From a virus (lineage: Duplodnaviria; Heunggongvirae; Uroviricota; Caudoviricetes): a stretch of 27,476 nt of DNA. The notes under the pieces were generated by a model that saw only the letters and a program-made list of their open reading frames with translations, did not search any database and was not told the DNA's origin. The position numbers and the translations under genes are program-made. Shown in pieces: positions 24,770 through 27,476 of this stretch. Where the stretch lies: the IMG/VR virus record IMGVR_UViG_3300028962_000002; one strand, given 5' to 3'. Numbering within the stretch: the stretch's first letter is position 1; each line of letters starts with the position of its first letter.

Positions 24770-25271
24770 AATTCCATCCAGCTTTTTGTTGGTATTGCTG
24801 TCGATACGCAAGTTTGAAAGCAATTGCTTTTTCTATAAGTTCGTCAGTTTCACGATCCACTACGGCAGGATCAGCAAAAAGCAGTCCGGACTCCACCACA
24901 TCGCCATATTCTTTGTTTAACCCGGCGATCATGTACGTGATGCTTTTTCCGTCACTAATTTCACGATACAACCTGAAATCATTAATCCGGATAGCCTCCA
25001 TAATTGCAGGCACTAGCGCCGTGAACTTTTCACGCTTATCCCTGGTGTCGATAGCCTTCCAGCGTTCGAATATCTTCACTCGATTAACGCCAAGCGCTCG
25101 CTGATCAACCGCGCCACCTTCATCTGTGACACGCTGAACATCGATGTTCGGGCGCTCTTTCAAAGCCCAGAATGCTTCAGTGATTAATATCGTCGCCTGC
25201 TCCTGTGTCATTCCTGGTCGACATATCCAGGCATCCAGAGCCTCACGAGCCTGTTCAGGAGTGATTTTCAT
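24750..25271 (-). CDS. YdaT-like protein (cII position, downstream of Cro-like gene)
   Basis: 173 aa; ...KREKFTALVPAIMEAI... resembles the Rac YdaT segment (...QREKIQKLIPAILAIL...) as recalled; follows the Cro-like gene as ydaT follows ydaS. Confidence 0.55.
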   Translation of the reverse strand: MKITPEQAREALDAWICRPGMTQEQATILITEAFWALKERPNIDVQRVTDEGGAVDQRALGVNRVKIFERWKAIDTRDKREKFTALVPAIMEAIRINDFRLYREISDGKSITYMIAGLNKEYGDVVESGLLFADPAVVDRETDELIEKAIAFKLAYRQQYQQKAGWNYEPSFC

Positions 25272-25482
25272 TGTTCAACCGCCCCGCCCGCTTCGTCTTA
25301 CGATATTCGTCATAAACCTTGGGATCATACAGAAGCTCGCCGCCAGATGCCTCCTGTAGACGCATCGCGCGACCTTCAGGAACCAGCTCTTGCCATTGAG
25401 AAACAGCAGATGGGTCAACGCCAGCAGCTTTCGCTACTTTGGCTTTCGTACCGTAAAAATTAATTACGTCTGATTTAAACAT
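25255..25482 (-). CDS. dicC: Cro-like regulator (DicC-like)
   Basis: Start MFKSDVINFYG with GGAGGT RBS; C-terminal ...PEGRAMRLQEASGGELLYDPKVYDEYRKTKRAGRLNNENHS; divergent from the repressor gene. Confidence 0.75.
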   Translation of the reverse strand: MFKSDVINFYGTKAKVAKAAGVDPSAVSQWQELVPEGRAMRLQEASGGELLYDPKVYDEYRKTKRAGRLNNENHS

Positions 25483-25559
25483 CGCACCTCCAGTATTGAG
25501 TTTTCTCAATGCTAATCACTCAAGGAATCTCAAGTCAAGGGTTATTAAGATATCTAAAT
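25483..25559. promoter_or_regulatory. Divergent promoter/operator region between Cro-like and repressor genes
   Basis: Perfect palindrome attgag-tttt-ctcaat at 25495-25510 and a nearby CTCAAGG-AAT-CTCAAG repeat; 77-bp intergenic region; the repressor ATG has no RBS (possibly leaderless, as lambda cI from pRM). Confidence 0.6.
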
Positions 25560-25967
25560 ATGAACGAGAAAACTTTAGGTCAACGCATTAGAGAAAGACG
25601 TAAGCAGGTAGGTTTAAGTCAAAACGGTTTAAGCAAAGCTGCTGGCGTATCTGGCTCATCAATTTCATTATGGGAAAGTGACCATACAGCCCCGCGCGGG
25701 CAAAATTTGCATCGCCTCGCCGAGGTATTGCAATGTTCACCAACCTGGATACTGTTTGGCGACGAGGACAAAACACCAGCTCCCCCTGTTTCACTCGATA
25801 GTGCCTTAGACTTATCGGAAGATGAGTTAGAGATGCTGCGTTTGTATCGCGCACTTCCTAAATCAGAGCAACAAGCACAACTCAGCGAACTCCGCGCCCG
25901 CGTTGAGAATTTTAATCGCCTGTTCACCGAGCTATTAGAGGCTCGCAAACGCAACAAGCATCAATAA
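25560..25967 (+). CDS. dicA: HTH (XRE-family) prophage repressor, DicA-like
   Basis: 135 aa from MNEKTLGQRIRERRKQVGLSQNGLSKAAGVSGSSISLWES...LAEVLQCSPTWILFGDEDK...; HTH near the N-terminus; C-terminal half matches DicA as recalled. Confidence 0.88.
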   Translation: MNEKTLGQRIRERRKQVGLSQNGLSKAAGVSGSSISLWESDHTAPRGQNLHRLAEVLQCSPTWILFGDEDKTPAPPVSLDSALDLSEDELEMLRLYRALPKSEQQAQLSELRARVENFNRLFTELLEARKRNKHQ

Positions 25968-26159
25968 TCATCCCTTCACAAAATTTTAAAGCCTTACATT
26001 TCAATGTATTGGCTTTATCTTGCGCCAATACTTGAGTTTTCTCATCAAAAAGCCTTGACGAAAAATAATGAGAAAACTAAATTACCTCCATCAACACACC
26101 GCACGGTGTTCTCAGCAAACAGTTCCGCTACCCCGGCGTTAAGGGGAAATGAGGTCAGC

Positions 26160-26315
26160 ATGGATACTATCGATCTTGGCAACAACGAATCTCTGGTGTA
26201 CGGCGTGTTTCCAAACCAGGACGGCACGTTCACCGCAATGACGTATACCAAAAGCAAAACGTTTAAAACCGAAAATGGTGCCCGTCGCTGGCTGGAAAGA
26301 AACTCAGGTGAGTGA
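26160..26315 (+). CDS. ydfA: Small protein YdfA-like (DUF1391-like), 51 aa
   Basis: GAGG RBS; MDTIDLGNNESLVYGVFPNQDGTFTAMTYTKSKTFKTENGARRWLERNSGE; first gene after the repressor, as in the Qin dicA-ydfABC-dicF-dicB operon. Confidence 0.65.
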   Translation: MDTIDLGNNESLVYGVFPNQDGTFTAMTYTKSKTFKTENGARRWLERNSGE

Positions 26316-26316
26316 T

Positions 26317-26892
26317 ATGGATTTCGACACAATCATGGAAAAGGCTTACGAAGAATACTTCGAAGGCCTTGCCGAAGGCGAAGAAGCTCTCAGCTTCAGT
26401 GAGTTTAAACAGGCACTCAGAATAAGAATGCGCTCTCACAATGACGCGGAGCACAAATATGAGAAGCAAAATCAGACCGCAGAAAATTTTGTTCTGGAAC
26501 CCGGAGAAACGCTTTTCAAAATTCCCGTTACGTGCCCCATTTGCGGTTTTACATCAGAAGAACTTGACGACTCCTGTAACAATCAGGAAACAACCAAGTA
26601 TGTCGAAGATGATACCGAGTGCGCACGAAGAACGATTATATCCACGAGTCCAAACTCCAGGACCAATAAATCTCACTTTGAGAGGGTGATTAATCCACTC
26701 CCCCAAACCAATAAAAAAGATGCCGGAGGACAAAAAAACCAATGGAACAACGGGATATCTGTCAAAAAAAGACGTTCCATTAAAGACAAACAACGCAGCG
26801 CCAACAACTGTAAGCGCTTTATACCAGTAATCAATTTTCATGTTCTTAAGCGGATTTATTGGTGGTTGCGACATTGCTTAATGAATCCTTAA
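26317..26892 (+). CDS. Hypothetical 191-aa protein (ydfB/ydfC-like position), basic low-complexity C-terminus
   Basis: ATG 2 nt after the ydfA stop with AGGTGA RBS (MDFDTIMEKAYEEYFEGLAEGEE...); contains CPICGF; an antisense membrane-like ORF overlaps it, so the gene model is ambiguous. Confidence 0.45.
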   Translation: MDFDTIMEKAYEEYFEGLAEGEEALSFSEFKQALRIRMRSHNDAEHKYEKQNQTAENFVLEPGETLFKIPVTCPICGFTSEELDDSCNNQETTKYVEDDTECARRTIISTSPNSRTNKSHFERVINPLPQTNKKDAGGQKNQWNNGISVKKRRSIKDKQRSANNCKRFIPVINFHVLKRIYWWLRHCLMNP

Positions 26893-27151
26893 AACTGTGG
26901 TGATTTTAAGGATACCACCTCGCCTGACGTGGTTAAAAGCAGGCACACAACACGAAAGCGCACGGCGAAGTTCGTCTCACTGTACGGTGTCGTCAAATTT
27001 AATTCGACCGTGCGCTTCCGGTTGTGGCAACCCGCGAAATGGCGCGGCGGTAAGTATGGCGGGGTTATTCCTTCCCCGTTGAGGACACCGAGTTGTCAGG
27101 TTGACCATACGCTTAAGCGACAACCCCGCTGCAACGCCCTCTGTTATCAAT

Positions 27152-27209
27152 TTTCTGGTGACGTTTGGCGGTATCAGTTTTACTCCGTGACTGCTCTGCC
27201 GCCGTTTTT
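27152..27209 (+). ncRNA. dicF: DicF small RNA (53-nt core plus U-tail)
   Basis: tttctggtgacgtttggcggtatcagttttactccgtgactgctctgccgcc followed by gttttt, matching the E. coli DicF sequence as recalled; ends in a hairpin plus U-run. Confidence 0.88.
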
Positions 27210-27378: not shown

Positions 27379-27476
27379 ATGAAAACGTTATTACCAAACG
27401 TTAAGGAAGGTGCGAATAAGCGGGGAAATTCTTCTCGGCTGACTCAGTCATTTCATTTCTTCATGTTTGAGCCGAT
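27379..27476 (+). CDS. dicB-like ORF start (cell division inhibitor position); continues past the window end
   Basis: ATG about 175 nt after DicF; first 8 residues MKTLLPNV match DicB as recalled, the remainder diverges; truncated by the window. Confidence 0.4.
   Translation, partial: MKTLLPNVKEGANKRGNSSRLTQSFHFFMFEP

Follow-up and report, generated by a model that had tools for sequence, protein, structure and literature searches.

The right end of the viral DNA analysed here raises the question of whether one or both of two long open reading frames (ORFs), lying on opposite strands of the same nucleotides, are genes. The DNA (the window, all 27,476 nucleotides (nt) of the Caudoviricetes record IMGVR_UViG_3300028962_000002 in IMG/VR) ends in the part of a Qin/lambda-like prophage that holds its immunity and early-left genes, where a first-pass annotation had placed a plus-strand ORF at 26317-26892 and, within its span, a minus-strand ORF at 26554-26874. 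Its coordinates and the peptides it quoted were correct, but its supposition that only one of the two was likely real did not hold, since the plus frame is free of stops in every diverged enterobacterial lineage in which the minus-strand gene is a lone antisense insert, and carries a coding signature upstream of the overlap. Both ORFs appear to be real, making an apparent rare two-strand gene pair. With a probability that we put at about 55%, the pair represents a two-strand cassette occupying the prophage's sieB slot, in which translation of a stop-free frame on the plus strand would escort early transcription across a putative exclusion gene on the minus strand, hereafter the cargo gene.

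The minus-strand ORF is almost certainly a genuine protein-coding gene. A search of 5.8 billion proteins returned full-length relatives of 105-108 amino acids (aa) at 88% and 84% identity in other Escherichia, 65% in Scandinavium, 57% in one further sequence and 51% in Yersinia, and intact ORFs of about 105 aa are also present in Providencia and Edwardsiella. Intact distant ORFs with 36-44% identity were found in Desulfobacteraceae, Herminiimonas, Marinobacter, Salinimonas, Polyangia and Shewanella by a scan of one genome per species, and a scan of viral contigs with the Yersinia protein as query gave no match. The cargo profile matched 382 of 1.84 billion representatives at 50% identity with E <= 0.001 (142 of these with E <= 1e-10), and a word search with the profile yielded 633 clusters (90% identity), every one of which bears the name 'hypothetical' and lacks a Pfam domain. 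The minus-frame ratio of nonsynonymous to synonymous substitution rates (dN/dS) was 0.10-0.19 among six enterobacterial sequences (Nei-Gojobori method), the differences cluster at minus third codon positions (11/7/35 over the three positions, for example), and indels in the family stay in frame for the minus strand. The first-pass annotation had named dN/dS in each frame as the comparison that might dismiss the antisense ORF; the outcome was the opposite, with the substitutions at minus third positions upholding it. Its conditional proposal of a small membrane-protein gene inserted in the dicB operon is likewise borne out by the distant homologues, by this range of dN/dS and by the K-12 Qin alignment, in which the cassette (~26416-26955) stands in place of the ydfB 3' end and ydfC.

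The residues D15-Y-W-Y-K19, G56, E59-W, N62-H-P64, R81, G87 and G94 are invariant in the family, and its conserved motifs are N-x-K-I-D-Y-W-Y-K-A and G-E-W-I-N-H-P. Kyte-Doolittle hydrophobic spans cover residues ~17-37, 40-59 and 82-106, and an AlphaFold2 model built from 15 sequences (mean predicted local distance difference test (pLDDT) 79, predicted template modelling score 0.68) places helices at 8-32, 42-62 and 85-105 and a hairpin at 66-78. Hydropathy and charge, read by the positive-inside rule, suggest an N-in, C-out topology in which the conserved residues of the N-terminal stretch and of the loop after helix 2 may face the cytoplasm. Against Pfam, the product gave noise only (TMEM238, E = 0.11; DUF7103, E = 0.18) and no SieB domain. 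A class I holin was considered and rejected, because the helices fit but the protein has no charged C-terminal tail (...VVKFF) and is encoded in the immunity region, not in a lysis cassette. The neighbours of the distant relatives (AsmA/DUF748, Tex, a TonB receptor, AAA_14/DUF4143 and DUF5677) offered no functional lead.

The plus ORF starts one base past the ydfA stop codon, with AGGTGA 5 nt upstream of its ATG, and consists of YdfB(1-33), a fragment of an early gene that we call X, and a 107-codon tail antisense to the cargo gene. Its first 33 codons are identical in DNA to K-12 Qin ydfB; a recombination joint follows at about codon 33, in frame, and from codon 34 on the ORF is unrelated to K-12 ydfB, with ydfC missing from the window. 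The description of the whole ORF as a long 'ydfB/C' thus applied to these 33 codons only. The plus ORF resembles K-12 YdfB in those codons, in its position after ydfA and in its ribosome-binding site, but YdfB of K-12 has 42 aa and the plus ORF has 191 codons, so that it does not qualify as a full-length YdfB. When both products were compared with Pfam, NCBIfam, PHROGs and PADLOC, only two matches were obtained: phrog_35040, a family that the plus ORF itself defines, and phrog_2061, over the YdfB N-terminus. The tail is hydrophilic and basic (21 K+R against 12 D+E over 112 residues, mean hydropathy -1.14) and is predicted to be disordered (pLDDT < 50).

The codon triplets of both ORFs start at positions congruent to 1 mod 3. 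The two are therefore codon-aligned, every codon of the plus ORF within the overlap reads as the reverse complement of one in the minus ORF, and a plus-frame stop can arise only from TTA, CTA or TCA in the minus gene. Six diverged enterobacterial sequences have zero stops in the in-phase plus frame over the cargo gene and use none of these three triplets among their 10-12 leucine and 4-6 serine codons each (G+C content at third codon positions (GC3) 0.36-0.50); over seven diverged lineages, the count is zero in ~107 leucine and serine codons at a GC3 of about 0.4. The leucine codons in use, CTT and TTG, are non-preferred ones. The plus frame is likewise stop-free in Providencia-type loci (L100, L103 and L108), in locus L101 and in phage mEp390, giving a total of about eight diverged lineages, in each of which the cargo gene is a lone antisense insert.

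Chance was evaluated by resampling synonymous codons according to the prophage's own usage (TTA+CTA, 13.7% of leucine codons; TCA, 20.8% of serine codons). The probability of an open plus frame was 0.05-0.14 per lineage, and the value for the window sequence alone, 0.059, is unremarkable; multiplied over six lineages that are mutually saturated at synonymous sites, the probabilities give ~2.5e-7, and for the approximately eight stop-free lineages the joint probability is ~1e-7 or lower. As controls, the Edwardsiella cargo gene, which is 61% identical and lies in a same-strand block, has 8 stops in the matching frame, the Pseudomonas guineae relative 12, six distant relatives 3-16 and Bcep176 gp33 4, and the antisense frames of lambda sieB and Rac sieB have 9 and 7. 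These data indicate that the plus frame has probably been selected to remain open. Over the overlap, the plus-frame dN/dS in close pairs is 1.3-1.7; the amino-acid sequence there shows no constraint of its own, and it is the openness of the frame that is conserved. In every lineage, the plus ORF ends 5-22 codons beyond the cargo start codon, its end corresponding to the cargo 5' leader. Both frames are broken now and then in individual genomes. A reduced synonymous divergence (dS) of the cargo gene was tried as a sign of dual coding and rejected, the values between L098 and L099 being 0.77 for the cargo gene and, for its neighbours, 1.11 (KilR) and 0.39 (the ASH/pRha gene), which amounts to no clear reduction.

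In L101 and phage mEp390, the cargo gene is again antisense, between cro and cII, and the read-through ORF is packed tightly between these two genes. In mEp390 (L204), the annotated gp39 (2456-2911; 151 aa, between the cro-like gp38 and the cII-like gp40) is the antisense read-through frame, and the cargo-family gene on the opposite strand, with a TTG start at 2495 and AAGGA 8 nt upstream, is unannotated. In Rac-like Escherichia variants (P0032-P0035), the read-through ORF begins at a ydfA-type start (MGIQKQ...), is 227-271 aa long, and crosses the cargo gene and its upstream scaffold before continuing in frame into ydfC-like sequence.

Just 5' of the overlap, the plus frame has a different character. 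There, 18 codons encode PGE..[IV]P..CPxCGF in five lineages, pairwise differences add up to 63/55/106 over the three plus-frame codon positions, and the proline, cysteine, glycine and phenylalanine codons show synonymous variants (CCC/CCA/CCT, TGC/TGT, GGT/GGA/GGC and TTT/TTC). By this codon pattern, the block is under plus-frame purifying selection. Full-length X is found in Edwardsiella (117 aa) and in Scandinavium; both forms carry the PGE..CPxCGF module and share an N-domain, ..QCxWxLKDCxMFRRWI.., which in the window has been swapped in frame for YdfB(1-33). In Edwardsiella, the X stop lies only two codons inside the overlap and the module is kept, so the tail is dispensable for X there. 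A four-ligand zinc ribbon in the plus ORF of the window was rejected, since only the CPxC pair is conserved and the other cysteine positions vary. Other prophages carry, as the first early gene past the repressor, homologues of the X N-domain, which converge on other cargo genes, and an order-wide genome search with this domain gave noise-level matches only. Such homologues (..QCEWTLKDCxMFRRW..) occur in viral contigs L194-L197 and at L100:930-1199, and their 3' ends overlap by 6-95 nt a gene of another recurring cargo family (..VVHHEHRIGYIVIRD..GGY.VEKGH..).

The cargo gene adjoins the prophage repressor, opposed to the early-left operon, in Yersinia, Scandinavium, Providencia, two Escherichia species and other enterics, and the order repressor, antisense cargo gene, early genes is syntenic in six lineages. 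In Rac, the order ydaF(DUF1391)-sieB(antisense)-kilS-kilR compares with ydfA(DUF1391)-cargo(antisense)-DicF-dicB in the window; in the annotated region of lambda, N and nutL sit immediately upstream of sieB. The 60 nt 5' of the cargo gene (gtgcctgcttttaaccacgtcaggcgaggtggtatcc) are kept in eight lineages and recognisably match the region upstream of lambda and Rac sieB. Within this scaffold, GCCTG (26944-26940) pairs with CAGGC (26926-26922) in a hairpin, and a -35-like TTAACC (26936-26931) and a -10-like TATCCT (26914-26909) are present, from which we infer that the scaffold acts as the cargo promoter; a consensus scan for a promoter and terminator of the minus gene gave no site over threshold, its only find being a weak terminator-like hairpin in the ydfB-derived part (26377-26358). 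RNAalifold returned a 5-bp stem with compensatory changes in two pairs. On the evidence of synteny and scaffold, the cargo gene is literally an occupant of the sieB slot, though unrelated to SieB in sequence. The hairpin itself (GCCUG, a 13-16-nt loop usually with UUUAACCAC, and CAGGC; 26922-26944 on the minus strand of the window) is also found upstream of sieB in lambda (L111:~600-640) and Rac (L110:~2050-2090), with compensatory GCCGGG/CCCGGC in the Providencia-type and Rac versions, and may be a regulatory RNA or DNA element common to the slot.

Because the gene lies in the sieB slot and the Edwardsiella relative lies within a same-strand gene block that includes AbiH, we read the cargo, with slightly less than even confidence, as a membrane protein for exclusion or abortive infection that would be expressed in the lysogen. 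The Edwardsiella piscicida block (L102, 1776-6326) comprises five same-strand genes between the early-left genes and a cI-type repressor, among them AbiH (PF14253), the cargo-family gene and a DUF2971 protein, and resembles a small defence island.

The two-strand cassette could work as follows. In the lysogen, DicA would hold dicBp off, and the cargo gene would be transcribed from its own sieB-type promoter, its product serving in the membrane for superinfection exclusion or abortive infection. Once derepressed, dicBp would drive transcription convergently through the cargo gene, and ribosomes moving from ydfA/ydfB through the stop-free tail would stay coupled to RNA polymerase. Such coupling might shield the A-rich antisense RNA, whose C/G ratio is only 1.18, from Rho-dependent termination, so that the early transcript could reach DicF, dicB and the genes beyond, and early transcription could also overrun and silence the cargo gene and its promoter. 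Known facts agree with this: the early-left operons of N-less cryptic prophages are shut down by Rho, as at t_rac upstream of kil in Rac (PMC4150792), and lambda has, as noted, N and nutL directly upstream of sieB. That translation carries early transcription across the cargo gene in this manner is a tentative proposal. Its wider form, in which N-less lambdoid phages would cross an opposed moron by translating its antisense strand, with a frame indifferent to sequence, protection from Rho and shut-off of the cargo on induction, is rather doubtful.

Several results weigh against this account of the cassette. Rac sieB and Bcep176 gp33 are lone antisense inserts too, but their antisense frames contain stops, so an open frame is no general requirement for crossing such a gene. 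Between the end of the plus ORF and DicF lie 260 nt of untranslated RNA, and the gap before the next gene is 230-900 nt in several lineages. The conservation of PGE..CPxCGF is unexplained if read-through alone mattered, and the E. coli versions of X are without the N-terminal cysteine pair. A few E. coli haplotypes (L098, L087, L117 and L119) have a stop in the plus frame or upstream of the overlap with the minus gene intact. On the side of function, the cargo product had no match in Pfam, NCBIfam or PHROG, neither product matched a PADLOC-DB 2.0 family at E <= 1, and the cargo model found nothing at E <= 0.001 in BFVD or the PDB by Foldseek.

Four other explanations of the pair have to be considered. 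That the minus ORF is an accident of the antisense strand and the plus ORF the real gene, coding for a long early protein of YdfB/C type, is close to untenable: the greater length of the plus ORF, its good ribosome-binding site coupled to ydfA, the direction of the operon, the choice of most gene callers, a cluster of 1798 member sequences (P0027) and the fact that it defines phrog_35040 all speak for it, but the minus protein is 36-51% identical across bacterial orders, in loci whose plus frame is full of stops, and both the third-position substitutions and the in-frame indels of the family belong to the minus strand. The converse, in which function resides in the minus gene alone and the plus ORF is no more than a shadow frame or what remains of decayed ydfB and X, left open by chance or by a codon choice in the cargo gene that has other causes, is improbable. 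It would account for the plus-frame dN/dS above 1 in close pairs, the predicted disorder of the tail, the haplotypes with a broken plus frame, the call of a ydfB pseudogene only by the current Prokaryotic Genome Annotation Pipeline (PGAP) and the E. coli forms lacking the X N-domain, and, of the frames across any gene, it is the in-phase antisense one that is open most often. What it fails to accommodate is a stop-free frame in about eight diverged lineages at the joint probability given above, the use of leucine codons that are not the preferred ones, the 8 stops of the related Edwardsiella gene in its same-strand context, the purifying selection in the block 5' of the overlap and the in-frame joint with ydfB.

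It is also unlikely that both strands make cooperating proteins, with the hydrophilic tail, the hydropathic mirror of the membrane protein, serving on induction as the phage's antidote to it or gate for it, in the manner of Esc towards SieB. The X module, tail and cargo travel as one cassette and openness of the frame is selected, as such a role would have it; Esc is required by P22 to escape its own SieB (PMC12197685), and in Pseudomonas phage Fc02 exclusion is likewise conferred by an early gene that lies antisense to a gene expressed in the lysogen (PMC9936078). Yet the tail shows no sign of amino-acid constraint and is predicted to be disordered, X of Edwardsiella retains its conserved module although it terminates after two codons of the overlap, and it is not established as a rule that sense and antisense peptides bind each other. 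Little weight falls, finally, to a real minus gene with a role other than defence, as a small membrane toxin, a holin-like protein or a lysogenic-conversion factor. Its product resembles class I holins in having three predicted membrane helices within ~105 aa, PADLOC gave no match, and distant relatives stand in ordinary chromosomal settings without prophage genes, beside AsmA/DUF748, Tex and a TonB-dependent receptor; against this, the cargo gene is outside the lysis cassette and its product has no charged C-terminal tail, enterobacteria invariably have the cargo gene in the slot of the immunity region where sieB is found, and AbiH is beside it in Edwardsiella. The two-strand cassette remains our preferred reading.

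The features of the locus are collected in Table 1. The dicBp-like site is presumed to be the source of the plus-strand early transcript, and its position agrees with that of dicBp upstream of ydfA in K-12 (bioRxiv 10.1101/2023.04.14.536235).

Table 1. Features at the right end of the window, with the basis of each assignment
Feature	Position	Strand	Basis
cro/dicC-like gene	25258-25482	minus	
dicA-like repressor gene	25557-25967	plus	
dicBp-like promoter, TTGACG-17-TAAATT	26055-26083	plus	consensus scan
ydfA (DUF1391)	26160-26315	plus	Pfam DUF1391, E = 1.7e-28; RefSeq annotation
Plus read-through ORF of the dicB operon, 191 codons + TAA	26317-26892	plus	ORF list
YdfB-derived N-terminus of the plus ORF	26317-26415	plus	K-12 Qin alignment; phrog_2061 match, residues 1-34
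Conserved block PGETLFKIPVTCPICGFT, C-terminal module of early gene X	26500-26553	plus	codon comparison, five lineages
Cargo gene, 106 codons, three predicted membrane helices	26554-26874	minus	homologues, dN/dS
Upstream scaffold of the cargo gene	26895-26950	minus	conserved in eight lineages and lambda/Rac sieB
Mobile cassette as a whole	~26416-26955		K-12 Qin alignment
DicF small RNA gene, downstream of the ORF pair on the early transcript	27153-27204	plus	Rfam RF00039, 72.5 bits

Further downstream, dicB starts at 27379, but only 26 nt of it are intact; past 27404 (...CAAACGTTAA), an insertion-sequence end follows (GGAAGGTGCGAATAAG...). As dicB is broken in this way, the prophage is unable to make DicB. 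The 72-nt insertion-sequence end is also present in 2314 plasmid records from many genera and presumably resembles an IS5 terminal repeat.

Concerning known systems, sieB of lambda, P22 and Rac, a superinfection-exclusion gene to whose system Esc and the antisense RNA sas also belong, is close in arrangement: it occupies the slot after the first early-left gene or genes by the immunity region, opposite to the early operon, shares the upstream DNA scaffold with the cargo gene and encodes a membrane protein, and the control of P22 sieB involves antisense relations (PMC12197685). The two differ in that they have no kinship in sequence or family, SieB having 162-192 aa and the cargo 106 aa, that stops abound in the sieB antisense frames whereas the cargo gene is spanned entirely by an early ORF, and that the exclusion role of the cargo is a putative one.

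A second comparison is offered by olg1/olg2 and gene 10 of Fc02, in which a small lysogen-expressed gene beside the repressor is overlapped by an antisense early lytic gene and superinfection exclusion is involved (PMC9936078). Fc02 is a Mu/B3-like phage with unrelated proteins, for which expression and phenotype have been measured, whereas the pair in the window is known from sequence; the latter, unlike that of Fc02, is a complete, codon-aligned overlap with comparative support across genera. Antisense overlapping genes have also been described in E. coli O157:H7, namely pop/ompA, ano, asa, laoB and nog1 (PMC7103648, PMC5960689). As in the window, a long ORF is embedded antisense in a coding gene and is usually dropped by annotation pipelines. 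The O157:H7 genes are young and taxonomically restricted, and were recognised from RNA-seq and Ribo-seq with weak evolutionary support, whereas the support for the window is evolutionary and spans lineages at ~50% identity; here, moreover, it is the embedded gene that is well conserved and the embedding ORF that is weakly constrained.

Of 5426 complete E. coli genomes, 806 (~15%) carry the cassette, with at least 99% identity in 771, and the isolated plaque-forming phage HannyBb has an identical copy. RefSeq records of identical DNA (L001, L002, L106 and L107) disagree on its content, giving either a 191-aa hypothetical protein (WP_000344958) or a 34-codon 'ydfB' pseudogene; records of the latter type, which are more recent (PGAP, 'ydfB, missing C-terminus'), leave about 480 bp unannotated, and the minus gene is seldom annotated in RefSeq. 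A conserved gene is therefore absent from most annotations, including those of an O157:H7 strain and of HannyBb, where the opposite strand or a 'ydfB pseudogene' is called instead.

The cargo gene introduces a new and widespread family of small membrane proteins in a slot known for an exclusion gene, and is a candidate that can be tested cheaply. Long antisense overlaps in bacteria are disputed and usually based on expression; the case in the window is evolutionary and comes with natural controls, as the frame is no longer open where the gene stands in a same-strand setting. If the proposed escort of early transcription is true, the cassette would be a translational counterpart of lambda N/nut antitermination at the same map position, and a rare instance of selection on the openness of a frame instead of on its product. 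If the open frame does carry transcription over the insert, the locus would provide a recodable test of how Rho and the coupling of translation to transcription shape phage operons.

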